IMG/VR virus record: IMGVR_UViG_3300043436_004750
DNA: 44,880 nucleotides
From: a virus
Lineage: Duplodnaviria > Heunggongvirae > Uroviricota > Caudoviricetes
Direction: 5' to 3' (one strand)
Shown here piece by piece: positions 10,104 to 44,859 of this stretch (positions are counted from its first letter, which is position 1; each line of letters opens with the position of its first letter). Both the position numbers and the translations under genes were made by a program. The notes beneath the pieces are model-generated. The model worked only from the letters and a program-made list of their open reading frames with translations, was not told where the DNA came from and made no database searches.

Positions 10104-10133
10104 ATGCCTATTTATAATAAAGTAAATAGGCAT
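10104..10133 (+). promoter_or_regulatory. leader hairpin enclosing the late promoter of the HNH gene
   Basis: Perfect 11-bp stem ATGCCTATTTA/TAAATAGGCAT ending 8 nt before ATG 10142; CTATTTAT starts in the 5' arm. Confidence 0.7.
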
Positions 10134-10141
10134 TTTTTATT

Positions 10142-10888
10142 ATGGATTATCAAAGAATTTATAATCAAATAGTTGATCGAGCAAAAAAAGAAAATAGGTT
10201 ATACGGAAAAGGTATATATTATGAAAGACATCATATAATCCCAAAGTGCATGGGAGGGGAAGGTAGAGTTGAGCAGTGGAAAACCCATCCAAACATTGTA
10301 GTATTGACACCAAGAGAGCATTTTGTATGTCATTGGCTACTGTGTAGAACCTACCCTAAAAACAGAAGATTAGCACATGCATTTTGGTTTATGTCAAAAC
10401 AGAACGGACCTACGCAACAAAGAGATTATGTAGTAAGTTCGAGAACGTATGCTGAAGCAGTGAATAACTTAGAATTCACAGAAGAGCATAAAGAAAAAAT
10501 TAGAAAAACAAGAGTAGGTAAGAAAACTGTGGTACATCCGCAGACAAACGAGATTAGATATGTTCCAAGTGAAGAATTAAATTACTGGTTAGAGCAAGGA
10601 TGGGAGAATACAAATTACACTAGAGGAAAGAAGGGATTGATATCAAAAGAAGGGAGTAAAGTCCTCGCAGAAGCTAGAAAAAAAGATCAAACAGGTAAAA
10701 CAGGTTTACAGGCAAAAGCTGCAAAAGGACCTTACACAGTCATCTTTGAATCAGGACAGAAATATACAGCAGGCAGCTATCCAGAACTTTCAAAACTAAC
10801 AGGAATATCATACTCAACTCTCCAGCACAGAATGACACACAAACCAGAAGTCTTTGAAAGAGGTTGGAAAATCTATAAGGGAGTATAG
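10142..10888 (+). CDS. free-standing HNH homing endonuclease
   Basis: ERHHIIPKCMGG...LTPREHFVCHWLL catalytic region; sits between tube and chaperone genes. Confidence 0.85.
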   Translation: MDYQRIYNQIVDRAKKENRLYGKGIYYERHHIIPKCMGGEGRVEQWKTHPNIVVLTPREHFVCHWLLCRTYPKNRRLAHAFWFMSKQNGPTQQRDYVVSSRTYAEAVNNLEFTEEHKEKIRKTRVGKKTVVHPQTNEIRYVPSEELNYWLEQGWENTNYTRGKKGLISKEGSKVLAEARKKDQTGKTGLQAKAAKGPYTVIFESGQKYTAGSYPELSKLTGISYSTLQHRMTHKPEVFERGWKIYKGV

Positions 10889-20203: not shown

Positions 20204-20632
20204 ATGAAAAAATCAGAGCTGATACAGGTCATAAAGGAAGAACTTACTACTTTACGGGGATTATATAGAGCTAAAGTTGGAGATAAAATCTGGATAGGAA
20301 AACAGGGTCAGCAATATAAGAGTAGATCAGAAATAACTAAGATTCTTCCTGATGGAAAATTAGTTTCAAAAGATGGAAATATATTTTATCCAAATGGTAG
20401 ATTATATAAAGGATCATCTCCTCAATACCAAAAAACAAAAAATCCTGGAAAGGAAGTTTCTGCTCAATTAGCTACTCAGGAAGATTTTAACAAAGAATAT
20501 AAAAGAATTAAAGTAGACTTTTTAAGGAAATTTGATTGGGATAAAATGGATATTGTGGATTTAGAAAAGTTAATTGATCAACTACCTATAAAGCAAGCAA
20601 ATACGCTAACTACATCTAGGTTTGTAAAATAG
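20204..20632 (+). CDS. hypothetical late protein
   Basis: 142 aa; MKKSELIQVIKEEL N-terminus; late motif at 20180. Confidence 0.6.
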   Translation: MKKSELIQVIKEELTTLRGLYRAKVGDKIWIGKQGQQYKSRSEITKILPDGKLVSKDGNIFYPNGRLYKGSSPQYQKTKNPGKEVSAQLATQEDFNKEYKRIKVDFLRKFDWDKMDIVDLEKLIDQLPIKQANTLTTSRFVK

Positions 20633-20670
20633 TATATAAATATCTTTAAGTGCTATTTATATTAAAGAAG

Positions 20671-20750
20671 AGTACTGCAACTACTTAAAAAAAATATTAC
20701 GGAGATTTTAGAAGAACACCTTGTTGCAGAGGGCTTATTCTAATTTCTCC
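20671..20750 (+). ncRNA. kissing-loop leader element, copy A
   Basis: AGTA[CTGCAAC]TACT, then GGAGA-TT-TTAGAA..CCTT[GTTGCAG]AGGG..TTCTAA-TT-TCTCC; the two loops are complementary. Confidence 0.75.
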
Positions 20751-20764
20751 TTTTTTTATTTAAT

Positions 20765-21499
20765 ATGGTAGGAATTTATAAAATTACAAGTCCAAGTGGA
20801 AAAGTTTATATAGGGCAAAGTGTTGATTTGGAAAGAAGAAAATGTGAGTACTTATCACCAAGTAACAGTAAAAGTCAACGAAAGCTTCACAACTCAATAG
20901 TGAAATACGGTTTCTCTACTCATATCTTCGAGATAGTGGAAGAATGTGCTATCAAGGAATTGAACACCCGAGAGAGACACTGGCAGGATTTTTACAATGT
21001 ACTAGAGGAAGGACTAAACTGCAGACTAACAACTACATTAGATCGGTCAGGAAAGGTATCAAAGGAAACTGATAGAAAAAGATCGGAAAAGAAGAAAAAA
21101 CCGGTACTACAGTATTCGTTACAAGGTATTTTAATTAAGGAATGGAGCTCAATTAAAGAAGCAGGTCAAGCACTAGGTATACAGACAGGTAACATACCAG
21201 CATGCTGTAAAGAGAAAAAATTCTCAGTAGGAAAGTTTATTTGGAGATATAAAGCAAATACCGTAGAGCAAACAATAGAAGTAGGTAATAAAACACAGAC
21301 ATCCAGTAAAGTAGGTAGAATGTGGTCAGGAAGAAGTAAAAAACCTGTACTACAGTATACAAAAGAAGGTACTTTTGTTAAAGAGTGGAAATCAATAGTA
21401 GAAGCAGCAAAAAATTCAGCAATTAGAGAAACAGGTATAATAAATTGCTGTAAATACAGAATCAAAACATCAGGAGGGTTTATTTGGATATATAAATAA
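20765..21499 (+). CDS. GIY-YIG homing endonuclease with two NUMOD1-like domains
   Basis: GIYKITSPSGKVYIGQS; two KPVLQY...KEWxSIxEA...CC...FIWxY repeats. Confidence 0.9.
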   Translation: MVGIYKITSPSGKVYIGQSVDLERRKCEYLSPSNSKSQRKLHNSIVKYGFSTHIFEIVEECAIKELNTRERHWQDFYNVLEEGLNCRLTTTLDRSGKVSKETDRKRSEKKKKPVLQYSLQGILIKEWSSIKEAGQALGIQTGNIPACCKEKKFSVGKFIWRYKANTVEQTIEVGNKTQTSSKVGRMWSGRSKKPVLQYTKEGTFVKEWKSIVEAAKNSAIRETGIINCCKYRIKTSGGFIWIYK

Positions 21500-21533
21500 A
21501 ATTTACTATATTATATAAAATTAGTTATAGTAA

Positions 21534-22859
21534 ATGTTCTATATAGTAGAATCAGATCAGCAATTAGATATACTTAAAGGTTATAGTGAAAAAGGAGCAT
21601 ACATAAAAGTAATCTCCTCAAACGATAACTATCACCCTCTTCTTACAAAAACCATAGCAGTTTATCTACGACCATTAAATCATGAGGAAGGATATATTAT
21701 TCCTATAAATCACGATGAAGGACTTAATGTAGATAAAAACCGTATCTACGACATTTTAAAGCAATACAAAACACTTTATACCATAGATAAGAAAGAGTTG
21801 CTGTATCACTTTATATTGAAGGATGTTATAGATATATCCCTACTGTACTCAATGACAAACTACGATAGGTTGGAGTTAGGTAGGAATAACTCAACTTATA
21901 ACTGGTTCTATAGTAGATTGCATGACTTCAAAGAAGTAAATGCTTTGATTCCAATTTCAAAGTTATATGAAAAATGCGAAGAAGATTACCAAGCAGTATA
22001 TTCCATATTGCAATATGCAATACCAAACGGATTTGATTTCTACAACAAAACAGCAACATCTGTATTTTTTGCAATAGAGCACACAGGACTAAGAACAATT
22101 CATCAGCCATATATAGATTTATTCAAACCAAATAATCCTATATTCAATATGCAAGATAATATTGCATATACTTCGTATAACCTATATAATACAACCTCTC
22201 GTCCAACAAATGCTTTTAACTCAGTTAACTATGCTGCAATACCAAAAGCACCTGAATTCAGAAAAGCAATCATACCTCAGAACGATTACTTTGTAGCATA
22301 CGATTATGACGGTTATCATCTTAGGCTATTATGTGAACAAATAGGGTATAACTTAACAAACGAATCAGCACATGCGCAATTGGCTAGACTTTATTTTGGT
22401 AAAGATGAAATAGCTGAAGAAGATTATGCAAAAGCAAAACAAATTAACTTTCATGCAATTTATGGAAAGATTCCGCCTGAGTATGCTTTCCTAGAGGTTT
22501 TTGAAAAGATGGAAAGGTACACATCATTGCTGTGGAAGCAATTTAAAGAACAGGGATATGTACAGGATCCAATATCAGGTAAGAGGTTTACACAAGAACT
22601 GCCAGAAATGCATCCACAGAAGTTACTAAACTACCTTATGCAAAGTTTAGAGACAAGTAGAAATATTTTAATACTAAAAGAATTAATAAAGTACCTAGCA
22701 GGAAAGAAAACTAGAATAGCTCTGTATGTGTACGATGCAATAATATTTGACTTTAGCAAAGAGGATGGAAAAGAAACGTTGGAAGAAATTGAAAGAATAA
22801 TGGAATCGGAAGGAAGGTATCCGACAAAGGTAGAGTATGGAAAATCGTTAAATTTTTAA
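21534..22859 (+). CDS. DNA polymerase family A, compact form
   Basis: 441 aa; motif A DYDGYHLRL, motif B AKQINFHAIYG, motif C VYDAIIFD. Confidence 0.85.
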   Translation: MFYIVESDQQLDILKGYSEKGAYIKVISSNDNYHPLLTKTIAVYLRPLNHEEGYIIPINHDEGLNVDKNRIYDILKQYKTLYTIDKKELLYHFILKDVIDISLLYSMTNYDRLELGRNNSTYNWFYSRLHDFKEVNALIPISKLYEKCEEDYQAVYSILQYAIPNGFDFYNKTATSVFFAIEHTGLRTIHQPYIDLFKPNNPIFNMQDNIAYTSYNLYNTTSRPTNAFNSVNYAAIPKAPEFRKAIIPQNDYFVAYDYDGYHLRLLCEQIGYNLTNESAHAQLARLYFGKDEIAEEDYAKAKQINFHAIYGKIPPEYAFLEVFEKMERYTSLLWKQFKEQGYVQDPISGKRFTQELPEMHPQKLLNYLMQSLETSRNILILKELIKYLAGKKTRIALYVYDAIIFDFSKEDGKETLEEIERIMESEGRYPTKVEYGKSLNF

Positions 22860-22897
22860 CGGTTTGGGAAAAAACTTGCTATTTATATTAAATAGAA

Positions 22898-22976
22898 GGT
22901 ACTGGTCCTACCGATAAAAGCATTACGGAGATTTTAAAAAGACACTACGGACCAGGTAGTTATTTTTAATTTCTCC
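22898..22976 (+). ncRNA. kissing-loop leader element, copy B
   Basis: GGTA[CTGGTCC]TACC, then GGAGA-TT-TTAAAA..ACTAC[GGACCAG]GTAGT..TTTTAA-TT-TCTCC. Confidence 0.8.
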
Positions 22977-22990
22977 TTTTTTTATTTAAT

Positions 22991-23617
22991 ATGAATTACC
23001 AAAAAATCTATAATCAAATAATTGATCGAGCAAAGGATAGAGAATTAAACTGTTATAAAGAAAACCATCATATTATTCCAAGGTGTATGGGTGGAACTAA
23101 TATTAAGGACAACTTGGTAGCATTAACTGCAAGAGAGCACTTTATATCCCATTGGCTGCTAACCAGAATACATCCGGAAAATAAAAAACTGGTACGGGCC
23201 TTTTGGGGAATGTGCAATCAAAAAAATAAAGGTAGAGACTATAGAGTTGGTAGTAAAGCCTATGAAGAGTCCAAGACAGCATTTTCTAAAATCCAATCAG
23301 AAAAAATGTTAGGAAGTAATAATCCTCAATATAACAAGATACCATGGAATAAAGGAATACCAGCATCAGAGAGTTCAAATAAAAAGAGATCACAAGCACT
23401 ATCAGGTGAGAATCATTTTATGTTCGGAAAACACCATACGGAGGATACTATACAGAAACTTAAACGTCCAAAAACACAGGAGCATATAGAAGCAATGAAA
23501 GGACCTCGAAAACCTTACGGACCTCAAGTAAAAGTAATTTGCCCCCACTGTAACAAGCAAGGAGGCAATTCTATGAGAAGATGGCATTTTGAAAATTGTA
23601 AAAACATAGAGTTGTAA
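22991..23617 (+). CDS. HNH homing endonuclease with NUMOD3-like and C-terminal Zn-ribbon modules
   Basis: ENHHIIPRCMGG...LTAREHFISHWLL; C-terminal CPHCNKQGGNSMRRWHFENC. Confidence 0.85.
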   Translation: MNYQKIYNQIIDRAKDRELNCYKENHHIIPRCMGGTNIKDNLVALTAREHFISHWLLTRIHPENKKLVRAFWGMCNQKNKGRDYRVGSKAYEESKTAFSKIQSEKMLGSNNPQYNKIPWNKGIPASESSNKKRSQALSGENHFMFGKHHTEDTIQKLKRPKTQEHIEAMKGPRKPYGPQVKVICPHCNKQGGNSMRRWHFENCKNIEL

Positions 23618-23679
23618 AATAAGAATATTTTTCGTATATTAAATAAAAGTAGGTTAGTAAAAAAAAGTTATATTTATAC

Positions 23680-24135
23680 ATGATACAAGAAGCATTAGAA
23701 CTAAGAAAATTCGATTACGACATTGAATACGATTACAACCTACTAACCATGTCAAATAAACTATTTTGTACTTTCTCTTCAGAACAACAACTAGACGAGA
23801 TTTTAAGTACAATACAAAACAAATACGAGATCATTTATAACAAGATTTTTGTTCTTTATTCAAAGAGCCAAGATGAGTATATCTGTACATATAACGTAGA
23901 ATTTGGAAACGTATCCAATTTCTTAGATAATACAATCCTTGTGCACCGCAAAAAGGAGAGTAATTCTCTATATACAATCAATTCACTTAACAGATTGATT
24001 GAGTCCTTAAACGGAGGAGTCCTAGATGTAACCTATAAGATAAACTGGATGGATTATCAAAATTGTATACTACTAACAAAAGGAAACGAACTAAGACGAA
24101 TTAACACTAAACTTTTTCGTATTATAGAATTATAA
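23680..24135 (+). CDS. hypothetical protein
   Basis: 151 aa ORF; an alternative start at MSNKLFCTF is possible. Confidence 0.7.
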   Translation: MIQEALELRKFDYDIEYDYNLLTMSNKLFCTFSSEQQLDEILSTIQNKYEIIYNKIFVLYSKSQDEYICTYNVEFGNVSNFLDNTILVHRKKESNSLYTINSLNRLIESLNGGVLDVTYKINWMDYQNCILLTKGNELRRINTKLFRIIEL

Positions 24136-24139
24136 GTAA

Positions 24140-24418
24140 ATGGAATCATTTGATATAGCAAAATGGAAGAAGAACTTCCTAAATAAAAATATACAAGAGA
24201 AGTACCAAGTAGTATTTCACGACTATGGTGGAGATGATGTTCCTTATACTGAGCAGTTTTTTAATAGTGAAAGTGATGCTGAGGATTTTGTAATAGCTAA
24301 TGAGTGGGAAGAGGATGTACAGGATTGGGAAGGAAATTACAGCACAAGAACTCGATACTATAATCCACAACAAAATGAATCAGAATTTGGGTATCATATA
24401 GAAAAAGTGGCGGTTTAG
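24140..24418 (+). CDS. acidic hypothetical protein
   Basis: 92 aa ORF. Confidence 0.6.
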   Translation: MESFDIAKWKKNFLNKNIQEKYQVVFHDYGGDDVPYTEQFFNSESDAEDFVIANEWEEDVQDWEGNYSTRTRYYNPQQNESEFGYHIEKVAV

Positions 24419-24449
24419 GAAAAAAGTTGCTATTTATACTAAATAAGAA

Positions 24450-24528
24450 GGTACTCGTCCTACCGATAAAAACATTATGGAGATTTTAGAATGACACTAC
24501 GGACGAGGTAGTTATTTCTAATTTCTCC
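24450..24528 (+). ncRNA. kissing-loop leader element, copy C
   Basis: GGTA[CTCGTCC]TACC, then GGAGA-TT-TTAGAA..ACTAC[GGACGAG]GTAGT..TTCTAA-TT-TCTCC. Confidence 0.8.
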
Positions 24529-24542
24529 TTTTTTTATTTAAT

Positions 24543-25232
24543 ATGATAGGAATTTATAAAATAACAAATCCAAAAGGGAAAATTTACATAGGACAGAGTA
24601 CAAATATACAAAATAGATTTAAGCAGTACAAAAGTCCACATTTTAAAAAACAGTATAAGCTTTTTTATTCAATAGAAAAATATGGTTATAATTCACATGT
24701 ATTTGAAGTATTAGAAGAATGTGCTGAAAGTGTATTGAATATACGAGAAAGGTACTGGCAAGATTTCTATAATGTACTACAAGAGGGGTTGAATTTACAC
24801 TTAACAAAAACAGAGAGTAAACCAGCAAAGCATTCAGAAGAAACTAAGCAAAAAATTAAAGAAAGCTTAATTGGTAGAATAATGACAGACGAACATAAAA
24901 AACGTCTATCAATAGCTAGAATGGCACTACCTGAAGAAATTAGGAAAGCAGCAGGTCAGCATAAAAAAGGTTATAAAGAATCTACAGAGTCTAATAAGAA
25001 GAGATCGGAAAAGCTACTAGGAGCAGTCAGATCGGAAGAGACTAGGAATAAGATGAAAAAACCTAAGTCAAAGTCTCACAGTGAAAATATCTCAAAGGCA
25101 AAAAAGGGCTTAGAGAGTTTAATTAAAGGACGATTAGATCAAATAATAACCTGCCCCTACTGTAAAAAAGAAGGAGGAAATTCAGGAATGAAACGATGGC
25201 ATTTTGAAAAATGTTCAAAAAGAGAGTTGTAA
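24543..25232 (+). CDS. GIY-YIG homing endonuclease with NUMOD3 and Zn-ribbon modules
   Basis: GIYKITNPKGKIYIGQS; HSEETKQKI; CPYCKKEGGNSGMKRWHFEKC. Confidence 0.9.
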   Translation: MIGIYKITNPKGKIYIGQSTNIQNRFKQYKSPHFKKQYKLFYSIEKYGYNSHVFEVLEECAESVLNIRERYWQDFYNVLQEGLNLHLTKTESKPAKHSEETKQKIKESLIGRIMTDEHKKRLSIARMALPEEIRKAAGQHKKGYKESTESNKKRSEKLLGAVRSEETRNKMKKPKSKSHSENISKAKKGLESLIKGRLDQIITCPYCKKEGGNSGMKRWHFEKCSKREL

Positions 25233-25295
25233 AATCGAAAAAGGTTTCGTATATTATAATAAAGTAAAATAAAGTTAAATTAAAAAAAAGTTATT

Positions 25296-26147
25296 ATGGA
25301 TTTGAATGCAATTAAAAATAAGCTAGCAGCTTTAAACAGTGGTGGAAACCAGGACAGAGAAAAAGTAGACTTCGACAAGATCTACTGGAGACCGGCAAAC
25401 GGTAAAAGTACCATACGTATTGTTCCTTCAGCATTTAATGCTGCAGATCCTTTCACAGAAATCAAATTACACTATAATATAGGAAAGTTCCCTATGGTAT
25501 CTCTTTCTAATTATGGTAAACAAGATCCAATCGAAGAGTTTGTAAAAGAATTAAGAAAGACTTCTGATAAGGACAACTGGTCATTATCTGGAAAATTATC
25601 TCCTAAATCTAGATTCTTTGCTCCTGTTATTGTAAGAGGAGAAGAAGACAAAGGAGTTCGTCTTTGGTCATTCGGTATTAACATCTATAAAGCATTATTG
25701 GCTTTAGCAGAGGATGAAGATATTGGAGACTTTACAGATGTAATGAATGGATGGGATATGGTTGTTGAAACCACACCAGCAGCAGGACCAGGTCAATTCC
25801 CAACTACTACAGTTCGTATTAAACCTAAACAAACTCCATTATCAGACGATAACACCCAGGTTGATTTATGGTTAAAAGAACAACCAAATGCTTTAGAAGT
25901 ACAAACTCAGTACGACTATGAGTTTATCAAAAAGAAATTACAAGAGTACTTAAACCCAGGAGAGGAAGTAACATCTCCAGCTCCAGTAGCAGCAGAATCA
26001 ATCGCACCAGTTGCACCAGCACCAGTACAGGCAGAAGAAACTGACTTGGATAGAGCTTTAGGAAGCAATAAGACAGATTTCACTCTAGAGAATGCAACAG
26101 CAGGAAATAAGAGTACAGTTTCTAAATTTGACGATTTATTCAACTAA
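25296..26147 (+). CDS. gp32: single-stranded DNA-binding protein, T4 gp32-like
   Basis: 283 aa; WRP...TIRIVP N-terminus and acidic FDDLF tail. Confidence 0.8.
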   Translation: MDLNAIKNKLAALNSGGNQDREKVDFDKIYWRPANGKSTIRIVPSAFNAADPFTEIKLHYNIGKFPMVSLSNYGKQDPIEEFVKELRKTSDKDNWSLSGKLSPKSRFFAPVIVRGEEDKGVRLWSFGINIYKALLALAEDEDIGDFTDVMNGWDMVVETTPAAGPGQFPTTTVRIKPKQTPLSDDNTQVDLWLKEQPNALEVQTQYDYEFIKKKLQEYLNPGEEVTSPAPVAAESIAPVAPAPVQAEETDLDRALGSNKTDFTLENATAGNKSTVSKFDDLFN

Positions 26148-26149
26148 GA

Positions 26150-27223
26150 ATGGCAGCTAAAAAAGAAACAGCAAAAACCGCTAGCGAAATAATCAAAGGC
26201 GGTTTTAGTTTGAGCAACTTTAAAAAGAATAAAGGATTTAGCTCTCAATCTGTAAAGTTTAAAAGCCAAGACTGGATTCCAGTTTCAAAAGCCTTCCAAG
26301 ACATCGTCTCTTTACCAGGTATTCCAACAGGGCATATCACCTTACTAAGAGGGCATTCTGATACAGGAAAGACAACGCTTTTATTAGAAGCTGCTGTCTC
26401 TGCACAGAAAAGAGGTATACTACCAGTCTTTATTATTACTGAGATGAAATGGTCATGGCCACATGCTCAGACAATGGGGTTAGAAGTAGAAGAAGTGATC
26501 GATGAAGAGACAGGAGAGATTACTGACTATCAAGGATTTTTCTTATATGCTGATAGAGGTAGTTTAAATACTATTGAAGATGTAGCAGCGTATATTTTAG
26601 ATCTAATCGATGAACAAAAGAAAGGAAATCTTCCTTATGATTTATGCTTCTTCTGGGATTCAGTAGGATCCGTTCCATGTGAAATGTCTGTTAAATCCAA
26701 CAAAAACAACAATGAATGGGCAGCTGGTGCAATGTCTACACAATTTGGAAATAATGTAAATCAGAGGATAATGTTATCCAGAAAAGAGGGGAGTAAGTAC
26801 ACAAACACTTTAGTAGCTATCAACAAAGTGTGGACTGCTAAACCAGAACACATAATGGGGCAACCTCGATTAGAAAATAAAGGGGGAAAGGCAATGTGGT
26901 ACGATGCTACTGTTATTATAACCTTTGGAAACATTACAAATTCCGGTACTTCCAAAATCAAAGCAATTGCTAAAGGGAAAGAGTATGAATTTGCAAAAAA
27001 GACAAAAGTCCAAATTGAAAAAAATCACATAAATGGAATCCAATCAAGAGGACCTATCGTGATGACACAGCATGGATTTATAGCAGATGACAAGAAGGAG
27101 ATTGATACATATAAAGATGCACATAAGCACGAATGGGCCCACACCCTAGGATCAAACGAATTCTCAGTAGTAGTTGAAGCAGATATGGAGGAAGATCCGC
27201 TAAATAGAGAGATTATTGATTAA
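26150..27223 (+). CDS. uvsX: RecA/UvsX-like recombinase
   Basis: 357 aa; Walker A GHSDTGKT; FFWDSVGS Walker B region. Confidence 0.85.
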   Translation: MAAKKETAKTASEIIKGGFSLSNFKKNKGFSSQSVKFKSQDWIPVSKAFQDIVSLPGIPTGHITLLRGHSDTGKTTLLLEAAVSAQKRGILPVFIITEMKWSWPHAQTMGLEVEEVIDEETGEITDYQGFFLYADRGSLNTIEDVAAYILDLIDEQKKGNLPYDLCFFWDSVGSVPCEMSVKSNKNNNEWAAGAMSTQFGNNVNQRIMLSRKEGSKYTNTLVAINKVWTAKPEHIMGQPRLENKGGKAMWYDATVIITFGNITNSGTSKIKAIAKGKEYEFAKKTKVQIEKNHINGIQSRGPIVMTQHGFIADDKKEIDTYKDAHKHEWAHTLGSNEFSVVVEADMEEDPLNREIID

Positions 27224-27250
27224 TTTATAGAAAAGTTGACTATTTATGTA

Positions 27251-27335
27251 TGTAGTGTCGGAGCTACAAATGTAAATAAAATATCAACTAAAGCTATAGG
27301 CAAGTAGAGACTCCGACCTCGAAAGCCATAGCTTT
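27251..27335 (+). ncRNA. kissing-loop leader element, divergent copy D
   Basis: TGTAG[TGTCGGAG]CTACA, then AAAGCTAT-A-GGC..GAG[ACTCCGAC]CTC..GCC-ATAGCTTT. Confidence 0.7.
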
Positions 27336-27342
27336 TTTTATT

Positions 27343-27993
27343 ATGACAGGAATATATAAAATAACAAATCCTAATGGAAAGATTTACATTGGGCAAAGCG
27401 TTTGCATCGAAAGAAGAAAGGTTATTTATAAAAACGAAAAATGCAAACGACAACCTAAAGTGTACAATTCCATAAAGAAATATGGATTCTCCCAACACAT
27501 TTTTGAAATTATAGAAGAATGTACAGTTCAAGAACTAAATAAAAGAGAGAGGTATTGGCAAGACTTCTACGAAGTATTAGGAGAAAACGGATTGAACCTC
27601 AGCTTAACAAACTCAAACGATAAGTCAGGACACATATCAGAAGAAGTTAAAAAAGTAATCTCAGAAAAGCTAACAGGAAGAGAACGCTCTCAAGAACATT
27701 GTAACAATATTGGAAAAGCTAAAAAAGGAAAAGAGAGTTGGTGGAAAGGGCACATACGGACAGAAGAACACCAGAAGAACTTAACTGAATCACTAAAGGG
27801 AAAGTCCTCCTGGAGTAAAGGAAAAACAGGATGCTACTCAGAAGAAACGTACAAGAAGTGGTCTGAGAATAAGCAGGGAGATAAAAATCCAATGTACGGA
27901 AAGAAGCAGAAAGAAATTGAATGTCCGCATTGTAAAAAAGTAGGAGGAGTCAATGTAATGAAACGTTGGCATTTTCAAAATTGTAAGAAATAG
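27343..27993 (+). CDS. GIY-YIG homing endonuclease with NUMOD3 and Zn-ribbon modules
   Basis: GIYKITNPNGKIYIGQS; CPHCKKVGGVNVMKRWHFQNC. Confidence 0.9.
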   Translation: MTGIYKITNPNGKIYIGQSVCIERRKVIYKNEKCKRQPKVYNSIKKYGFSQHIFEIIEECTVQELNKRERYWQDFYEVLGENGLNLSLTNSNDKSGHISEEVKKVISEKLTGRERSQEHCNNIGKAKKGKESWWKGHIRTEEHQKNLTESLKGKSSWSKGKTGCYSEETYKKWSENKQGDKNPMYGKKQKEIECPHCKKVGGVNVMKRWHFQNCKK

Positions 27994-38777: not shown

Positions 38778-38865
38778 GGAAGAGTAAGCCAAGTCGGTCT
38801 ACGGGTCGCGGTCTTGAAAACCGTTGGGTGTAACAGCCGTGTGAGTTCAAGTCTCACCTCTTCCG
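38778..38865 (+). tRNA. tRNA-Ser(TGA)
   Basis: GGAAGAG/CTCTTCC acceptor; GCGGT-CTTGAAA-ACCGT; long variable arm. Confidence 0.9.
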
Positions 38866-38871
38866 CAATAC

Positions 38872-38943
38872 TGAGTTATAGTGTAACGGTTAGCACAAAA
38901 CACTTTGACTGTTTTAGTCTAGGTTCGAATCCTAGTAGCTCAG
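38872..38943 (+). tRNA. tRNA-Gln(TTG)
   Basis: TGAGTTA/TAGCTCA; AAACA-CTTTGAC-TGTTT. Confidence 0.9.
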
Positions 38944-39158
38944 CAAATAATTGTGAGTATTGAAATCCTCTCCCAACACTTGATCAGTAAGTAGGACGGT
39001 TAGTAAAGAAAGCATTATCAGTAAGTAGTGGAGAAATCCATGCGGAGAAAACGATGCAAGACGCAAGTACAGGGAACCAGCCCGATGGCTTTGCTTACGG
39101 ACATTACAGTAGTTTTGAGATGGGCGAATTCTACTTTAAAAAAATAATCCCTTCACCA

Positions 39159-39234
39159 CTGGATGTAGAGGAGCCCGGTTTATCTCGCTAGCCTTGGACG
39201 CTAGAGCACGCAGGTTCGAATCCTGCCTACCAGA
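39159..39234 (+). tRNA. tRNA-Pro(TGG)
   Basis: CTAGC-CTTGGAC-GCTAG; two acceptor mismatches at 5:68 and 6:67. Confidence 0.8.
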
Positions 39235-39298
39235 CCGAGAGACTGTTACTAATTCATAGGAGCGTTAAAGGACTTACGCCTGCATAGAATTAGATTTT

Positions 39299-39371
39299 GC
39301 CTTCGAAGCTCATGTGGACGGGCACCGGGCTTTTAACTCGGGGGTAGCTGGTTCGAGGCCAGCCGGGGGTA
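39299..39371 (+). tRNA. tRNA-Lys(TTT)
   Basis: CCGGG-CTTTTAA-CTCGG; T loop TTCGAGG. Confidence 0.85.
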
Positions 39372-39453
39372 CGATAGTCAGATCGCAACTGGCACCAGAT
39401 AGGGTTTTTGATTCACTGTTCCCTCTGAAATAACAAAAAGACAGGAAAAGCTT

Positions 39454-39524
39454 GCCTTGTTGGCGTAATGGTAGCGTATTTGTTTTACATGCAAAGGGCG
39501 ATAGTTCGATTCTATCACAAGGTA
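39454..39524 (+). tRNA. tRNA-Val(TAC)
   Basis: GCCTTGT/ACAAGGT; TTTGT-TTTACAT-GCAAA. Confidence 0.85.
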
Positions 39525-39623
39525 CAAAATTCTGGGTAGTAAGTAAAATACCGGCAAGTATTTTCAAGTCTATAAGGAGTCTATTATGAGTTATTAATTT
39601 GCCGATGAAAGCTTGTTGTAGTT

Positions 39624-39695
39624 TCGTTCTTAGTGGAATGGTGACCACGCTGCCCGTGGAGGGTGGAGAAGCAGGTTCGATTCCTGTAGAATGAT
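39624..39695 (+). tRNA. tRNA of undetermined identity (loop CGTGGAG; TGG with G33)
   Basis: Complete cloverleaf TCGTTCT/AGAATGA, normal D and T arms; anticodon loop lacks U33. Confidence 0.55.
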
Positions 39696-39701
39696 CAAAT
39701 T

Positions 39702-39784
39702 GGGATGCTTCAGTCACTGGTGTGATAAGCGGTCTGTAAAATCGTTGCTGTAAGAAGCGTGTGGTTCGATTCCACAGTATCCCA
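39702..39784 (+). tRNA. tRNA-Tyr(GTA)
   Basis: GGGATGC/GTATCCC; GCGGT-CTGTAAA-ATCGT; long variable arm. Confidence 0.9.
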
Positions 39785-39789
39785 CAACA

Positions 39790-39862
39790 GGGTCTTTCGT
39801 ATAGATGGTTCGTACGTCCGCCTGAAGAGCGAAAGGAGCAGGTTCGATTCCTGCAGGACCCA
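39790..39862 (+). tRNA. tRNA-Phe(GAA)
   Basis: GGGTCTT/AGGACCC; loop CTGAAGA. Confidence 0.88.
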
Positions 39863-39941
39863 CGTAAGTCGCTGAAACCTTAAAACTGGCGAAATTCAAA
39901 TAAGTAAGTATTAGGTGACTATTCGGAGAGACGGATAAATT

Positions 39942-40013
39942 GGGTTTGTCGTATAAAGGTTATTACGGGTGACTGTTAATCACTTTATGAAGGTTCGATT
40001 CCTTCCAGGCCCG
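39942..40013 (+). tRNA. tRNA-Asn(GTT)
   Basis: GGGTTTG/CAGGCCC; GGTGA-CTGTTAA-TCACT. Confidence 0.9.
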
Positions 40014-40020
40014 CAAAACT

Positions 40021-40092
40021 GCTCCTATAGTAGAATGGTTAGCACACATTCCTGATAAGAATGAAAAGAAGGTTCAATTCCTTCTAGGAGTA
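40021..40092 (+). tRNA. tRNA-Ile(GAT)
   Basis: GCTCCTA/TAGGAGT; CATTC-CTGATAA-GAATG. Confidence 0.9.
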
Positions 40093-40098
40093 CAAAAT

Positions 40099-40184
40099 GG
40101 AAAGTAAAACAATCAGGGTATTGTCACCGCCTGCTAAGCGAGTGGTTCTGTAAAAGGAATGGATTTCGAATATTCTGCTTTCCG
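40099..40184 (+). tRNA. tRNA-Ser(GCT)
   Basis: GGAAAGT/GCTTTCC; loop CTGCTAA; long variable arm; T53-A61 instead of G53-C61. Confidence 0.8.
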
Positions 40185-40189
40185 CAATT

Positions 40190-40257
40190 ACCGAGAGGTC
40201 AAGGACCATGGATGGCTCATATCCAACCATAGAATGGAGCATTACCATTTCTCGGTA
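40190..40257 (+). tRNA. atypical 68-nt tRNA(CAT), possibly elongator Met
   Basis: ACCGAGA/TCTCGGT; minimal D hairpin GGTC-AAG-GACC; loop CTCATAT; T arm AATGG-AGCATTA-CCATT. Confidence 0.6.
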
Positions 40258-40264
40258 CTAACAT

Positions 40265-40338
40265 GGTGATTGTAGCTGAATTGGTAAAGCGTCTGATTGT
40301 GGTTCAGGAGATTGTGGGTTCGAGTCCCATCTTTCACA
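40265..40338 (+). tRNA. tRNA-His(GTG)
   Basis: Encoded G-1; TCTGA-TTGTGGT-TCAGG; acceptor mismatches at 5:68 and 6:67; A73. Confidence 0.82.
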
Positions 40339-40344
40339 CAAAAT

Positions 40345-40418
40345 ACCTCCGTGATGGAACTGGAATACATATCGATCTTAAACGTCGAGTTTTGAGGGTT
40401 CGAATCCCTTCGGAGGTA
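40345..40418 (+). tRNA. tRNA-Leu(TAA), short variable arm
   Basis: ACCTCCG/CGGAGGT; TCGAT-CTTAAAC-GTCGA. Confidence 0.85.
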
Positions 40419-40464
40419 CTGTAGACTTTTTGAAATATTAGCCTATTTATAATAAAGAATAAGT

Positions 40465-41118
40465 ATGGCTAATATCAAAGAGAATAAGAAATACCATTTC
40501 ACTTATAAGACAACAAATCTTATAAACAATAAGTACTACTTGGGAATGCATTCAACTAACCATCTAGATGACGGTTACTTAGGAAGCGGTAAGAGGTTGT
40601 ACTACGAACTAAATAAGTACGGTAGAGACAATTTTAAATTTGAAATACTGGAACAATTTGATTCGAGAGAAGAATTAGTTCAAGCTGAGATTAAGTTAAT
40701 AACAGAGCAGGATTTAACTAATCAAAACTGTTTAAATCTAAGTAGAGGAGGTAGTGGAGGTATTCATAACGAAGAGCATTACGCAGCTTTTTCAAAAGGA
40801 AGAGAACAAAGTAGCTCCAGAGGCGGAATCACTTCTCAAAAAAGGTTTAGGAACAACCCAGAAGAAGTTAAGAGAAGAGCCTTTTTACAGGGAAAGTCTT
40901 TAACTAGATACTACGAGGAAAGACCAGGTACCTTCAAAGGGAAGGTACATACATCTGAAACTATTAATAAGATGAAACAGTCCAAACAAAATCAAGGAAG
41001 AGGAGAGGATAACTCACAGTACGGTACTTGTTGGATAACAAATGAAAAAGAGAATACAAAAATACGCAAAGGAGATACAATCCCAGAAGGATGGAGATTG
41101 GGAAGAAAATTAAAATAA
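40465..41118 (+). CDS. Seg-like GIY-YIG homing endonuclease in the tRNA array
   Basis: HFTYKTTNLINNKYYLGMHST...YLGSG; NUMOD3-like HTSETINKM. Confidence 0.85.
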   Translation: MANIKENKKYHFTYKTTNLINNKYYLGMHSTNHLDDGYLGSGKRLYYELNKYGRDNFKFEILEQFDSREELVQAEIKLITEQDLTNQNCLNLSRGGSGGIHNEEHYAAFSKGREQSSSRGGITSQKRFRNNPEEVKRRAFLQGKSLTRYYEERPGTFKGKVHTSETINKMKQSKQNQGRGEDNSQYGTCWITNEKENTKIRKGDTIPEGWRLGRKLK

Positions 41119-41120
41119 CT

Positions 41121-41192
41121 GGTCTTATAGTTTAATTGGAAAAACTTATCGCTACGAACGATAGAATTCAGGTTCGAGACCTGATAGGACCT
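41121..41192 (+). tRNA. tRNA-Arg(ACG)
   Basis: GGTCTTA/TAGGACC; TATCG-CTACGAA-CGATA. Confidence 0.9.
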
Positions 41193-41197
41193 CAACT

Positions 41198-41268
41198 GCC
41201 CGTATAGTTCAAAGGAAGAACATATCTCTTCTAAAGATAGAATCCTGGTTCGAGTCCAGGTATGGGTT
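41198..41268 (+). tRNA. tRNA-Arg(TCT)
   Basis: GCCCGTA/TATGGGT; TATCT-CTTCTAA-AGATA. Confidence 0.9.
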
Positions 41269-41341
41269 CAAAAATCGTCTCATCATATTGAGTTAATTAG
41301 AAGATACATCTCTAAGTAGGTTAAACGATATCCTACAAAAT

Positions 41342-41413
41342 GCAAGTGAGGCTGAGGTAGCCGATGGAACTCCAAATCCCATGTTCGAGCAGGTTCGATT
41401 CCTGCCATTTGCG
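41342..41413 (+). tRNA. tRNA-Trp(CCA)
   Basis: GCAAGTG/CATTTGC; loop CTCCAAA; short D loop. Confidence 0.8.
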
Positions 41414-41447
41414 CAAAATATATTGTTTCATTAAAAATTAAGAAATC

Positions 41448-41954
41448 ATGAGTAAGTACCAAAAAACACTAGTAGTGGATTCAAGCTTTATCGCCCGGAG
41501 TATCATCTCAACAGAAAGAGCATTTGTGATTTCTTATAAAGGTAATGCAGAGGTAATAGCAGAACATCCAGAAACATTTGGATTAGTAAATCCAAATCTA
41601 GAGATTTACAAACCTTCTATTATTAGAGTATTTACATACGTAAAGCAGCATATACATAAAGTTCCACTAACAAGAGAAAACATCTATAAAAGAGATAATT
41701 ATGAATGTGTTTATTGTGGGAGTTCAAATCAAAGAACATTAACACTTGATCACGTTATCCCTCAATCAAAAGGAGGAAAAGATACTTGGGATAATTTAGT
41801 AACAGCATGCCGTACATGCAACCATGAAAAAGCAGATCTAACGTTAGAGGAATACGGTAAGGATATACCTGAACCAAAACGTCCACATTATTTAATGTTA
41901 CTAAGACAGGTTCAAGAAATGCCAAAAGAATGGGAAACATTTTTACTATTTTAG
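41448..41954 (+). CDS. HNH endonuclease (McrA-like family)
   Basis: RDNYECVYCG...LTLDHVIPQSKGGKDTWDNLVTACRTCNHEK. Confidence 0.9.
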   Translation: MSKYQKTLVVDSSFIARSIISTERAFVISYKGNAEVIAEHPETFGLVNPNLEIYKPSIIRVFTYVKQHIHKVPLTRENIYKRDNYECVYCGSSNQRTLTLDHVIPQSKGGKDTWDNLVTACRTCNHEKADLTLEEYGKDIPEPKRPHYLMLLRQVQEMPKEWETFLLF

Positions 41955-42154
41955 TTGGCTATTGCAAAATAATTTCTTATATTTAGGTATAATTAAAGAG
42001 ATACAAAAATCGGAATTGACCGAGGCACGTGGTTAACGGTATTGCACCGACTCGCTTAAGCCCTAAGAGCACTTTAATTTTAAATATAAAATACCTGCTA
42101 CGTAACGCACGATCGACGACACGTACTATCTGGAAAGTCAGATCAGGTAAATTT

Positions 42155-42225
42155 GGGCGATTGGTCGATTGGTTAGGCGCAGGATTGCAAACTCTGTTAG
42201 GTTGGTTCGATTCCAACATTGCCCT
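42155..42225 (+). tRNA. tRNA-Cys(GCA)
   Basis: GGGCGAT/ATTGCCC; loop TTGCAAA; U73. Confidence 0.85.
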
Positions 42226-42240
42226 CAAAAAAATCAAAAT

Positions 42241-42696
42241 ATGATAAAATTAGTAGATCTTTTAAAAGAAGTAGTAGATTTATATTTACCTAATGAATTA
42301 CATAGTAAAGATATTTCTATTGAGGTTAAAGAAGAGAATAAAAGAAAGTTTAAAGTAATATTAACATATAAAGATAATTATTACGAATTTATAGCACTCC
42401 CTTTACTAAATCCTAAAAGACCATCAATCAATTTTGGAGATACTGACAAACAAGGAATTAATTTAAACTTAAACAATTTATTAAATTCTCCACATTCTCC
42501 CAGAATATTAGCAGCTATTTTTGGACTATTGAGATATTGGGTTGACAAGTATGATATACGGGAATTTGAATATGGAGCTGAAGGTAATATAAGAACCAAA
42601 TTATACGATATGTACTTAACAAAACATTTTCCTGATTTCGAAAATTCACAAGAGAAATACGGAGAACATACACTACAGATATGGACCAAGAAGTAA
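42241..42696 (+). CDS. hypothetical protein
   Basis: ATG at 42241 (MIKLVDLLKE) preferred because the track start at 42169 lies inside tRNA-Cys. Confidence 0.7.
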   Translation: MIKLVDLLKEVVDLYLPNELHSKDISIEVKEENKRKFKVILTYKDNYYEFIALPLLNPKRPSINFGDTDKQGINLNLNNLLNSPHSPRILAAIFGLLRYWVDKYDIREFEYGAEGNIRTKLYDMYLTKHFPDFENSQEKYGEHTLQIWTKK

Positions 42697-42833
42697 TTTT
42701 AGTTAGGAAATTAGAACTCTTACAACATATTGAAAGAATATATAATATTGAAATAGGAGATGATGAAATAGAATTAATAATAACTTTTGAAGATTTAATT
42801 AACTTAGTTATTAAAAAAAGTTTGGCTATCTAA
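42681..42833 (+). CDS. 50-aa ORF resembling the C-terminal half of an acyl carrier protein (not in the ORF track)
   Basis: MDQEVILVRKLELLQHIERIYNIEIGDDEIELIITFEDLINLVIKKSLAI*; lacks the DSL serine. Confidence 0.45.
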   Translation: MDQEVILVRKLELLQHIERIYNIEIGDDEIELIITFEDLINLVIKKSLAI

Positions 42834-42896
42834 ATTATTTTTCATATATTTAGATATAAGAAAGTAAGATCATTGAAATATTGGATAAAATAAATT

Positions 42897-42972
42897 GCAC
42901 TTGTGGGCAAACTGGCAAAGCCGTCTGACTTAGAATCAGAAGATGTTGTGGGTTCGACTCCCACCAGGTGTA
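42897..42972 (+). tRNA. tRNA-Leu(TAG), short variable arm
   Basis: GCACTTG/CAGGTGT; TCTGA-CTTAGAA-TCAGA. Confidence 0.88.
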
Positions 42973-43169
42973 CAAAATTTAAAATCACTTGCTTGAAGAT
43001 AAACAGCTAATTTTACGTGGTGCTATCCTATTAAAAAAGAGTAAATATGCATATTAAACTGTACTAGCAGTTGTGTTTATTGTAGAGATATGAGGAGATG
43101 TCTACAGCTAGTGTAAGTCTAGCAATTTATATTCCACTAGAATTTGGACAAGTGATTTAAAATAAAAAT

Positions 43170-43234
43170 TAGAGTTAGCTTATAGTAAAGCAGCGGGGGC
43201 TAACCTGCAGAACGGATACGAAAACCGACTCTAA
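43170..43234 (+). ncRNA. degenerate tRNA-like cloverleaf
   Basis: TAGAGTT/GACTCTA; GCTT/AAGC D arm; GCGGG-GGCTAA-CCTGC; weak T arm with TACGAAA loop. Confidence 0.4.
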
Positions 43235-43240
43235 TTATCT

Positions 43241-43314
43241 GCTTCTGACGCATGAACGGTGGTGCACCTGATTTGTAACCAGGAATAGAGTCGGTTCGAT
43301 CCCGACCAGAAGCT
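43241..43314 (+). tRNA. tRNA-Thr(TGT)
   Basis: GCTTCTG/CAGAAGC; loop TTTGTAA. Confidence 0.88.
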
Positions 43315-43409
43315 CAAAGTGTTGTTCCCTTGAGAAAGGAAAATAGAGTGGCTACACGGTTGTTGCAACAACTAGTAAAGACTAGCACAGAGGAACTCAA
43401 CCTCAAACT

Positions 43410-43481
43410 GCGAGTGTAGTATAACGGCTATTATGCCTGGCTTCCAACCAGGAGATGGGGTTTCGATTACCCCCATTCGCT
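43410..43481 (+). tRNA. tRNA-Gly(TCC)
   Basis: GCGAGTG/CATTCGC; CCTGG-CTTCCAA-CCAGG; T53-A61. Confidence 0.88.
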
Positions 43482-43532
43482 CAGGGGTGTGTGGGAACCC
43501 GTGAATATGTGATGAGCATACACCCACAATTT

Positions 43533-43604
43533 GCTACCGTCGTCTAATGGCCAGGACACAACACTTTCACTGTTGAAATGGGAGTTCGATTCTCCTCGGT
43601 AGTG
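43533..43604 (+). tRNA. tRNA-Glu(TTC)
   Basis: GCTACCG/CGGTAGT; CAACA-CTTTCAC-TGTTG. Confidence 0.9.
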
Positions 43605-43669
43605 CAAAATCCTATAGTAGGGTAGATGGAAGGTGCTAGTCAATAGCAAGCCGCTACTGTAGGTAAACT

Positions 43670-43744
43670 GGGGGCACATGTACCAAGGCTTGGCGAAAAA
43701 CACTTGCAATGTTTCTGTGATGGGTTCGATTCCCATTGTCTCCA
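43670..43744 (+). tRNA. tRNA-Ala(TGC)
   Basis: GGGGGCA/TGTCTCC with G3:U70; AAACA-CTTGCAA-TGTTT. Confidence 0.9.
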
Positions 43745-43790
43745 CTGTAGACTTTTTGAAAAGTTAGCCTATTTATTATAAAAGATAGAT

Positions 43791-44438
43791 ATGGCTAACA
43801 TTAAAGAGAATAAAAGATTTCATTTTACTTATAAGACAACAAATCTTATAAATGGAAGATATTATCTGGGAATGCATTCAACTAATCGTTTAGATGACGG
43901 TTATTTGGGAAGTGGTAAGAGACTGTACTATGAGTTGAATAAATACGGCAGAGACAATTTTAAATTTGAAATACTGAAGCAATTTGAATCAAGAGAACAA
44001 TTAGTTCAAGCTGAAATAAAATTAATAACAGAACACGATTTAAAAAATCCAAACTGCTTAAATTGTAAACCAGGAGGCGAAGGAGGGTTCCTAGATAGTA
44101 CTAGAATGGATAATGCAGAAAGGAAGCGCAGGTTTCTTGATAAGATGAGTAACGATAGTGAGTATAGGGAAGGATTTTTAGATAAGTGTAGGGAAAACTA
44201 CCCTAAGACCTTAGGAAAATATAAAGCATTAGGAACTCACGATTATGCAACTTTTAAAGGAAAAAAGCATACACCTGAAACTATTGAGAAAATGAAAGAG
44301 AGTAAGAAGGATTACGGAAAAGGATCTACAAATTCTCAATACGGAACTTGTTGGATAACAAATGAAGTTGAAAATAAAAAAATATACAAAGGCGACTCAA
44401 TTCCTCAAGGATGGAAATTGGGAAGGAAATTAAAATAA
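43791..44438 (+). CDS. Seg-like GIY-YIG homing endonuclease, paralogue of 40465-41118
   Basis: HFTYKTTNLINGRYYLGMHST...YLGSG; shared C-terminus NSQYGTCWITNE...GRKLK. Confidence 0.85.
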   Translation: MANIKENKRFHFTYKTTNLINGRYYLGMHSTNRLDDGYLGSGKRLYYELNKYGRDNFKFEILKQFESREQLVQAEIKLITEHDLKNPNCLNCKPGGEGGFLDSTRMDNAERKRRFLDKMSNDSEYREGFLDKCRENYPKTLGKYKALGTHDYATFKGKKHTPETIEKMKESKKDYGKGSTNSQYGTCWITNEVENKKIYKGDSIPQGWKLGRKLK

Positions 44439-44442
44439 TTTT

Positions 44443-44514
44443 AGTCTATTGGTCCAGGGGAATGGATGCCTGCCTGTCACGTAGGAGACCCGGGTTCGAA
44501 TCCCGGATAGACCG
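44443..44514 (+). tRNA. tRNA-Asp(GTC)
   Basis: CCTGC-CTGTCAC-GTAGG; A1:C72 mismatch; G73. Confidence 0.85.
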
Positions 44515-44521
44515 CAACAAT

Positions 44522-44597
44522 GGCGGGTGGATCCGGTTGGTATCGGGGGTAGTCTCATAAGCTACATTAAAGGAGGTTCGATTCCTCCACGTCGCAA
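44522..44597 (+). tRNA. initiator-like tRNA-fMet(CAT)
   Basis: GTAGT-CTCATAA-GCTAC; unpaired 1:72 and a bulged acceptor stem. Confidence 0.7.
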
Positions 44598-44786
44598 CAA
44601 AGCCGGTTTTGACACTCCGCTCATGGGAGGTCAGTTTTCTGGAGGAGAAAATTGGGATGCAGCATTGAGGGTTTTAAAAGTTTGTACCGACAAAGAATGG
44701 GTTTTGCCTGCAAAGCGTGTTTACGCCTTATAAACACAACTTGAAAATAGAAAGGGGTGTAGGTCAGCTTTAACCGAACCCTATTT

Positions 44787-44859
44787 GGACCTGTAGCTCA
44801 GTGGTAAGAGCGCCCGCCTCATAAGCGGAGGGTCGGAGGTTCAAATCCTCCCTGGTCCA
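44787..44859 (+). tRNA. tRNA(CAT), probably Ile2 (lysidine type)
   Basis: GGACCTG/CTGGTCC; TAGCTCAG D arm; loop CTCATAA; A73. Ile2 versus Met is an inference. Confidence 0.8.

Follow-up and report, generated by a model that had tools for sequence, protein, structure and literature searches.

The DNA analysed here, hereafter the window, is the whole 44,880-nt IMG/VR virus record IMGVR_UViG_3300043436_004750 (Caudoviricetes), which belongs to an uncultured Flavobacterium-type phage. Among its replication genes lie four homing endonuclease genes, each preceded by a putative promoter motif and by a leader in which two hairpins carry complementary loops, and it is this kissing-loop leader that we describe. 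Three of the leaders share one sequence type (class A) and were first described, as ~80-nt copies, in an earlier note made from the sequence alone; the fourth (class B) has an unrelated sequence. All features of the four cassettes given below are on the + strand.

In the first class-A copy, the putative promoter motif CTATTTAT (20653-20660; CTATTTATA at 20653-20661), assigned by motif enrichment, is followed by a small hairpin, P1 (20671-20685, or 20670-20686 with an outer G.U pair), whose loop L1 reads CTGCAAC (20675-20681). A long hairpin, P2 (20701-20750; base GGAGA/TCTCC), exposes loop L2, GTTGCAG (20723-20729), and T7 plus ATTTAAT (20751-20764) lead to the ATG, at 20765, of a GIY-YIG homing endonuclease gene with NUMOD1 (20765-21499). 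The second copy comprises the putative promoter motif at 22879-22886 (extending to 22887), P1 at 22898-22912 (L1 CTGGTCC, 22902-22908), P2 at 22927-22976 (L2 GGACCAG, 22949-22955) and the U run with its spacer at 22977-22990, ahead of an HNH-type homing endonuclease gene starting at 22991 (22991-23617; phrog_655, E 4e-59; NUMOD3; weak Pfam HNH). The third has its putative motif at 24430-24437 (to 24438), P1 at 24450-24464 (L1 CTCGTCC, 24454-24460), P2 at 24479-24528 (L2 GGACGAG, 24501-24507) and U run plus spacer at 24529-24542, and precedes a GIY-YIG homing endonuclease gene with a weak NUMOD3 match (ATG at 24543; 24543-25232).

The class-A P1 is thus a hairpin of 4-5 bp with a 7-nt loop, separated by an A-rich linker of 13-14 nt from P2, in which the GGAGA/TCTCC base is topped by a U.U/U.U internal loop, a stem of 6-7 bp, a further internal loop and an apical stem of 4-5 bp. 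In all three copies the 7-nt L2 is the exact complement of L1, TCTCC lies exactly 14 nt before the ATG, and the last 24 nt through the ATG are the same letters. The P2 pattern has three matches in the window and none in 100 shuffles, and RNAfold finds both hairpins in the window copies (z-scores of -2.3 to -2.7). Coordinates read off the window therefore agree with the earlier note as to the position of the copies, the loop complementarity and the 14-nt gap. Its gap of 12-13 nt between motif and P1 does not hold, the measured distances being 10, 11 and 12 nt in copies 1, 2 and 3. The downstream genes are, by Pfam and PHROGs matches, the GIY-YIG/NUMOD1, HNH and GIY-YIG/NUMOD3 genes that it named, with the Pfam HNH match and the copy-3 NUMOD3 match both weak.

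The class-B leader (27240-27342) repeats the promoter motif and the architecture of class A in unrelated sequence. It runs from the motif CTATTTATG (27240-27248) through P1 (27251-27268; TGTAG/CTACA, L1 GTCGGAG at 27257-27263), the linker (27269-27289) and P2 (27290-27335; AAAGCTAT...ATAGCTTT, L2 CTCCGAC at 27311-27317) to T7 (27333-27339), ATT and the ATG at 27343 of a GIY-YIG-type homing endonuclease gene (27343-27993; phrog_314/7168/5123, NUMOD3).

The motif upstream of these leaders, [CA]TATTTATA, is enriched on the + strand, where it lies 9-33 nt before the ATG of many other genes, including those for tail sheath and tail tube; in cassette 1 the distance is 103 nt. Since other genes keep the motif so close to the start codon, it looks as if the leader, ~90 nt long, had been inserted behind a standard promoter, ahead of the ATG. 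The distribution of the motif partly supports its reading, in the earlier note, as a putative late promoter.

Homologues found by pattern scans and a descriptor search show that the complementarity of the loops is maintained while their sequences change. The class-A P2 pattern gave 39 loci in viral contigs and 35 further true copies in metagenome and genome contigs; the hits in the genome contigs were mostly chance hairpins, with a single true copy (L152). Across the three sources, L1 and L2 are complementary in 88 of 89 class-A leaders, a set of 53 distinct sequences in which at least 12 loop pairs occur (e.g., CTGGTCC/GGACCAG, CTGCGAC/GTCGCAG, CTAGTCC/GGACTAG, CTGGAAC/GTTCCAG, CTTGCCC/GGGCAAG, CTGACC/GGTCAG and ATGCAAC/GTTGCAT). 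In an alignment of 37 distinct class-A sequences, 94.6% of the whole structure is paired, compared with 37-53% when partners are slid, and the loop-loop helix is 97.3% paired, with both sides changed in five of its seven pairs; the few unpaired loop cells are 6-nt loops misaligned by MAFFT. Class B, with 12 distinct sequences and eight loop pairs, has a loop-loop helix that is 100% paired and changed on both sides in six of seven pairs, and two pairs of its P2 stem are swapped as well. The covarying kissing-loop RNA of the earlier note is therefore borne out strongly in homologues of both classes.

The sole class-A mismatch, on a 1160-nt metagenome contig (L160), combines L1 CTGCGAC with L2 GTACCAG and is a chimera of two leader types that cross over in the conserved linker; it arose either by natural recombination or in assembly. 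Wobble cells, counted as a test of which strand is folded, gave 35 G.U against 21 A.C and are not decisive. We noticed that loops differ among all copies in the same genome (in the window, in L010 and in the contig holding L029, L032 and L036), an outcome with a chance of about 1 in 5 by rough estimate. Diversifying selection, or selection for loop orthogonality within a genome, was considered and is unsupported, as loops vary at about the synonymous rate.

The same plan recurs in sequences with no resemblance to class A, which the earlier note had overlooked. We fetched 80 loci solely by similarity to GIY-YIG proteins and searched the upstream regions with a strict descriptor (a 7-nt complement between the loops of two hairpins, plus an outer stem and a T run), which matched 18 of 63 distinct upstream regions, none of 64 ORF-internal controls (ORF, open reading frame) and none of 1260 shuffles. 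A loose descriptor, with a 6-nt complement and neither T-run nor outer-stem rule, matched 22 of 64 upstream regions (21 true and one probable false positive) and none of 65 controls, with 33 matches among 1280 shuffles. The matches fall into at least nine unrelated sequence classes, and two more (L080 and L100) fit the plan by eye. Several classes follow a canonical Bacteroidota -7 box, TTGTATATTTG (TAnnTTTG type), and because P1 begins 4-6 nt after the box, it is predicted to coincide with the 5' end of the transcript or to lie beside it. The ORFs behind the leaders encode nucleases of three unrelated kinds, namely GIY-YIG, phrog_655 HNH-type and endonuclease-VII-like with a C-terminal HNH; one leader class can precede different nucleases, and one nuclease type can follow different leader classes. 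In 728 kb of loci the fold in sense orientation precedes nuclease genes only. The proposal of a leader common to unrelated nuclease families thus stands on a broader footing than the three window copies.

Neither class A nor class B has a nucleotide match in 50,697 records of cultured phages, and the fold was not found in the first 50 kb of the nuclease-free phage immuto. Flavobacterium phage FL-1 carries a GIY-YIG gene behind a promoter and a plain hairpin of terminator-like type, with no kissing loop, and in another set of GIY-YIG genes a plain hairpin with T6-7 directly abuts the ATG. As this plain-hairpin set shows the same arrangement, a position just behind a terminator-like hairpin is a general habit of GIY-YIG genes. 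As a separate observation, certain P2 internal loops recur across unrelated classes, namely a symmetric UGAU/UGAU and AGUA opposite GAAA, in L065, L070 and L105 (classes C-E) and in 27299-27324, L087 and L089 (classes B, F and G). The former possibly forms tandem G.A pairs, and the latter presumably resembles the loop E (sarcin-ricin) motif.

The leader travels with its gene. A 1523-nt metagenome contig from another lake joins window position 22850 to 23629 via 29 other letters; promoter, leader and HNH gene are all missing from it, which bounds mobile cassette 2 (promoter, leader and HNH-type gene) at 22851-23628. Because the allele without the nuclease gene is also without the leader, we conclude that the leader belongs to the mobile cassette; along with the recombined leader and nuclease classes, this fits the portable module of the earlier note. 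In a metatranscriptome from another freshwater sample, a 431-nt contig of depth 3.6 corresponds to window positions 26947-27311 joined to 22981-23028: the recA-like gene comes first, then a class-B leader whose L2 differs, then the start of an HNH ORF. A relative therefore has an HNH gene at the site occupied in the window by a GIY-YIG gene.

The leader can also outlast its nuclease. Three solo class-A leaders (L035:2300-2510 on the - strand, L037 and L165:870-1066) have lost the nuclease ORF from the ATG to near the stop, by one common deletion junction upstream of a gp32-like gene. They occur in two diverged backgrounds (L035/L037 and L165) with different upstream flanks, and their loops differ and are still complementary.

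The closest cultured relative, Flavobacterium phage immuto, shares 79% identity over only 480 nt. Its replication module keeps the gene order of the window (polA, 151-aa ORF, hypothetical protein, SSB, RecA-like, 5'-3' exonuclease) with no nuclease genes between, so that the window can be read as four cassettes inserted in intergenic gaps. GIY-YIG or HNH genes are thus present or absent between conserved neighbours, as is characteristic of homing endonuclease cassettes. The family-A DNA polymerase of the window consists of a 441-aa ORF (21534-22859) and a separate 151-aa ORF (23680-24135). The polymerase ORFs of immuto are likewise split, 19 nt apart (L061, 1-1801), and the split is therefore older than the HNH insertion between them.

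A conserved block of ~45 nt, GAGTTGTAAAAT...TTTCGTATATTA.AATAAAG, follows the HNH and GIY-YIG cassettes (23612-23649 and 25227-25264). It contains TTGTAA-N17-TATATT overlapping the stop codon, the nuclease-less allele having TTGCAA at the same spacing, and is probably a promoter for the downstream gene. As such promoter-like elements follow cassettes 2 and 3, the downstream genes may restart transcription themselves and need no read-through. Within the block, TATATTAAATAA echoes the start of the leader.

Other nuclease genes of the window are arranged differently. A seventh homing endonuclease gene (10142-10888; phrog_655) lies between the tail tube gene and the next gene, and its leader (10108-10144) is of the T4 design, with the promoter motif inside the 5' arm of a hairpin, GCCTATTTA/TAAATAGGC, then ATTTTTTATT and the ATG. 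Two Seg-like GIY-YIG genes in the tRNA island (40443-40467 and 43769-43795) have the motif 13 nt before the ATG and no kissing-loop leader; the surrounding region (38778-44859) is an array of 21 tRNA genes above the Rfam gathering threshold.

We next consider what the fold might do. In all 21 true leaders recovered by the loose search, which imposes no T-run rule, the GC-ended base of P2 is followed at once by T5-8, and in every leader the ATG begins 0-10 nt past this U run; the P2 base lies 7-17 nt from the AUG. A GC-rich stem base directly before a U run is a mark of intrinsic terminators, and this signature of long hairpin plus U run, common to all classes, was overlooked in the earlier note. 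The signature is also where the sequence is most constrained. In class A, nucleotide diversity (pi) is 0.07 from the U run to the ATG and 0.07-0.10 in basal P2, compared with 0.31-0.34 in L1 and L2, 0.46 in the apical stem and internal loops, and 0.41 at third codon positions of the GIY-YIG gene. These values indicate that the apex of P2 drifts about neutrally yet stays paired, and that its base and the U run are held to their sequence; basal P2 and the linker are constrained beyond what pairing needs. The conservation is no artefact of the search pattern: with only P1 and the linker as anchors, a scan recovered an identical set of loci (21 of 21). Calculated energies are 0 to -5 kcal/mol for P1 alone, -7 to -15 for the loop-loop duplex and -8 to -22 for P2 (only -8 to -9 in some classes). 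With P1 and some P2 weak and the loop duplex strong, the kissing loop could matter for the stability of the fold. A pairing of linker with U run, suggested by minimum-free-energy folds, was rejected, as it shows no covariation and shuffles do as well.

Among the readings considered, the one we tentatively prefer, while holding it with some reserve, is that the leader acts as a promoter-proximal intrinsic terminator braced by the kissing loop, which would throttle nuclease expression. We observe the structure and its covariation, its association with nuclease genes and its place within the cassette; we infer termination, the part of the kissing loop in it and any effect on translation. Each cassette is a self-contained mobile unit of promoter, RNA leader of ~85-95 nt and homing endonuclease gene. 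In the RNA, a weak P1, an A/U-rich linker of 12-24 nt and a long P2 are drawn, by 6-8 intramolecular pairs between the apical loop of P2 and the loop of P1, into a compact pseudoknotted fold. P2 and the U run would stop most transcripts, whether they start at the cassette promoter or read through from upstream, leaving the nuclease ORF to a minority of read-through transcripts. In these, a stable fold 7-17 nt from the AUG may further limit ribosome loading in a host without Shine-Dalgarno use. Overall, expression of a potentially toxic nuclease would be throttled whatever the context. Nuclease genes of the T4 family offer a precedent, with start-occluding hairpins, embedded late promoters and internal terminators, of which that of mobE stops ~30% of transcripts (PMC2988022).

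Several points weigh against this interpretation. P2 spans 30-53 nt and has internal loops and an apical loop of 7-8 nt, unlike the compact short-loop hairpin of a typical terminator, and a simple terminator scan, which is not built for long hairpins, makes no call on it. The metatranscriptome contig spans the leader; if it derives from RNA, it records read-through, which fits leaky termination and lends termination no support. The U-rich stretch before the AUG could simply be a ribosome loading site, as the nuclease gene at 10142 has the same ATTTTTTATT ATG. By analogy with the guanidine-IV riboswitch (PMC11611296), the kissing loop could equally oppose termination. As for the functions listed in the earlier note, an expression switch or throttle fits best, and an inhibitor of the nuclease or a nuclease-bound RNA is unlikely, since one leader serves three unrelated families and persists, with its pairing intact, after the nuclease is lost.

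The closeness of the P2 base to the AUG would suit a leader that acts only after transcription, its 5' fold protecting the mRNA from 5'-end-dependent decay and tuning the loading of 30S subunits on the U-rich stretch, an explanation we regard as rather unlikely. The predicted position of P1 at or next to the transcript start in the classes with host promoters is consistent with it, as are the T4-like designs elsewhere in the window (10108-10144, 40435 and 43763) and the T4 precedent itself (PMC2988022). It may also include, in class A, a helix P0 between ATATTAAATAAGAAG, which overlaps the promoter, and TTTTTTATTTAATAT, which includes the AU of the AUG; as in T4, P0 may mask the start codon, and do so exclusively in transcripts that read through. 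P0 is 93.3% paired compared with 55-60% when slid, with few compensatory changes: only two pairs (four cells) changed on both sides, all pairs are A-U or G.U, and the 5' arm overlaps the 3' end of the promoter motif. We rejected P0 as a general feature, since neither class B nor the host-promoter classes have a counterpart of it; it is at most class-A-specific. Action after transcription also leaves the GC-closed stem abutting the U run in every class unexplained, and the start codon is never within P2. If termination is accepted, the product itself might matter. Promoter, 5' hairpin, A/U-rich single strand and terminator hairpin with U tail are the typical layout of a small-RNA gene, and a terminated RNA of ~85-95 nt could be a functional decoy, cofactor or inhibitor, with the nuclease made by read-through. 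The solo leaders, which retain pairing between different loops in two diverged backgrounds, and the constraint on basal P2 and the linker beyond pairing would suit such a product. We nevertheless find it quite improbable, as we do the variant in which the RNA acts in trans by titrating a host or phage RNA-binding factor or works with the shared DNA-binding modules of the nucleases. The sense fold precedes only nuclease genes in the loci and is absent from the part of immuto searched, and a start codon that invariably follows the U run by 0-10 nt speaks for coupling in cis. Moreover, hypervariable loops rule out a common trans target for the loops, and the solo cases are only three, with one shared deletion junction.

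A regulated switch, in which a protein, a ligand, Mg2+ or temperature shifts the balance between the kissing loop and a fully closed terminator, would be modelled on guanidine in the guanidine-IV riboswitch or on cobalamin acting via a loop-loop contact. The topology matches the former (hairpin, linker, and a hairpin extending into the terminator, with kissing loops; PMC11611296), and the recurrent UGAU/UGAU and AGUA/GAAA internal loops and the conserved 3' end of the linker could be binding sites. We consider a switch very unlikely, given that loops drifting near the neutral rate make the kissing loop no conserved ligand pocket, that there is no Rfam match, that the genes downstream are selfish nucleases and include no metabolic genes or transporters, and that no antiterminator alternative covaries, the helix of linker and U run included. 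Lastly, the same leader joined to different nucleases and flanks, together with the crossover in the conserved linker of L160, recalls the PeSL cassettes (PMC2839356, PMC4122927) and might suggest a module for recombination at the level of DNA, its RNA structure being incidental. Such a module cannot explain loop complementarity kept through at least 12 class-A and 8 class-B versions and at least nine unrelated classes; promoter before stem-loop is the reverse of the PeSL order, and L160 may be an assembly chimera. Covariation largely refutes a DNA-level role as the sole explanation, to which we give hardly any credence, and a secondary role of this kind could exist beside the braced terminator that we prefer.

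If the braced-terminator reading is right, the leaders would form a family of structured RNAs, so far undescribed and widespread among Bacteroidota phages of lakes and of some marine samples, that is defined by architecture instead of sequence and whose natural covariation is unusually clear. This would imply that selfish nucleases outside T4 and Escherichia coli are also tightly restrained, here by a kissing-loop-braced terminator inside the mobile cassette. In the leaders, nature provides loop pairs that are interchangeable and mutually orthogonal on a constant scaffold, and these could be used to probe loop-loop effects on termination and translation in a phylum without Shine-Dalgarno use. 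Should the leader prove to function as a small RNA in its own right, it would represent a new type of cargo linked to homing endonucleases and surviving their loss.

Database searches are consistent with a new element. At Rfam 15 gathering thresholds, only tRNAs pass in the whole window, and a search of 20600-27400 that admitted E values as high as 10 has TEG147 as its best hit, on the class-B P2, with 23.8 bits against a threshold of 56.1; this sole near-match is itself a terminator-like element. The search gave no family for the leader, in agreement with the earlier note, which did not recognise the motif, and group I intron, ribozyme and tRNA-like readings have no Rfam support. Full-text literature searches found no published description of the leader.

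Parts of the design have parallels in known systems. Fully paired loop-loop helices of 6-7 nt, with loop sequences that are free as long as the partner matches, occur in the antisense complexes of ColE1 (RNAI/RNAII) and R1 (CopA/CopT). Those form between two molecules from opposite strands, whereas the pairing of the leader lies within one transcript. The phage T4 gene 32 leader places a 5' pseudoknot before an A/U-rich leader that controls translation.

PeSL cassettes of T4-type phages are likewise short, conserved, repeated modules of promoter and terminator-like structure that flank variable genes and are possible recombination points (PMC2839356, PMC4122927). They consist of a stem-loop and then an early promoter and are interpreted at the level of DNA, whereas the leader has a promoter and then a covarying RNA pseudoknot, with a recombination role hinted at only by the L160 chimera. 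The guanidine-IV (mepA motif) riboswitch is promoter-proximal and shares the 5' hairpin, the linker, the hairpin running into an intrinsic terminator and the kissing loops (PMC11611296; PMC7736828). It has conserved loop nucleotides and a ligand-dependent kissing loop that opposes the terminator. By contrast, loops of the leader are hypervariable (pi of 0.31-0.34 against 0.41 at synonymous positions; at least 12 versions), no ligand is indicated, Rfam has no match, and all downstream ORFs are homing-endonuclease-like, with none for guanidine export or detoxification. The nearest functional relatives are the T4-family elements (I-TevI/II/III, segB, mobE, segF and seg43(25); PMC2988022), which are also cis RNA structures 5' of free-standing GIY-YIG and HNH genes in large myophages, keep expression low, have a phage promoter beside the structure and have terminators at or near the gene start. 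The stable hairpin of seg43(25) sits immediately 5' of the initiation site and leaves it uncovered, much as in the leader. The others are single hairpins over the ribosome-binding site with the promoter in the 5' arm, whereas here the promoter is upstream of a two-hairpin kissing fold that excludes the AUG: the distance from the end of P2 to the ATG is 14 nt in class A and 7-10 nt in class B, and the AU of the AUG is touched only by P0, the candidate class-A helix. The host phyla differ, Shine-Dalgarno sequences not being used here, and there is no sequence similarity. Control of homing endonuclease expression in cis is therefore already known from T4; what is new is the RNA fold.

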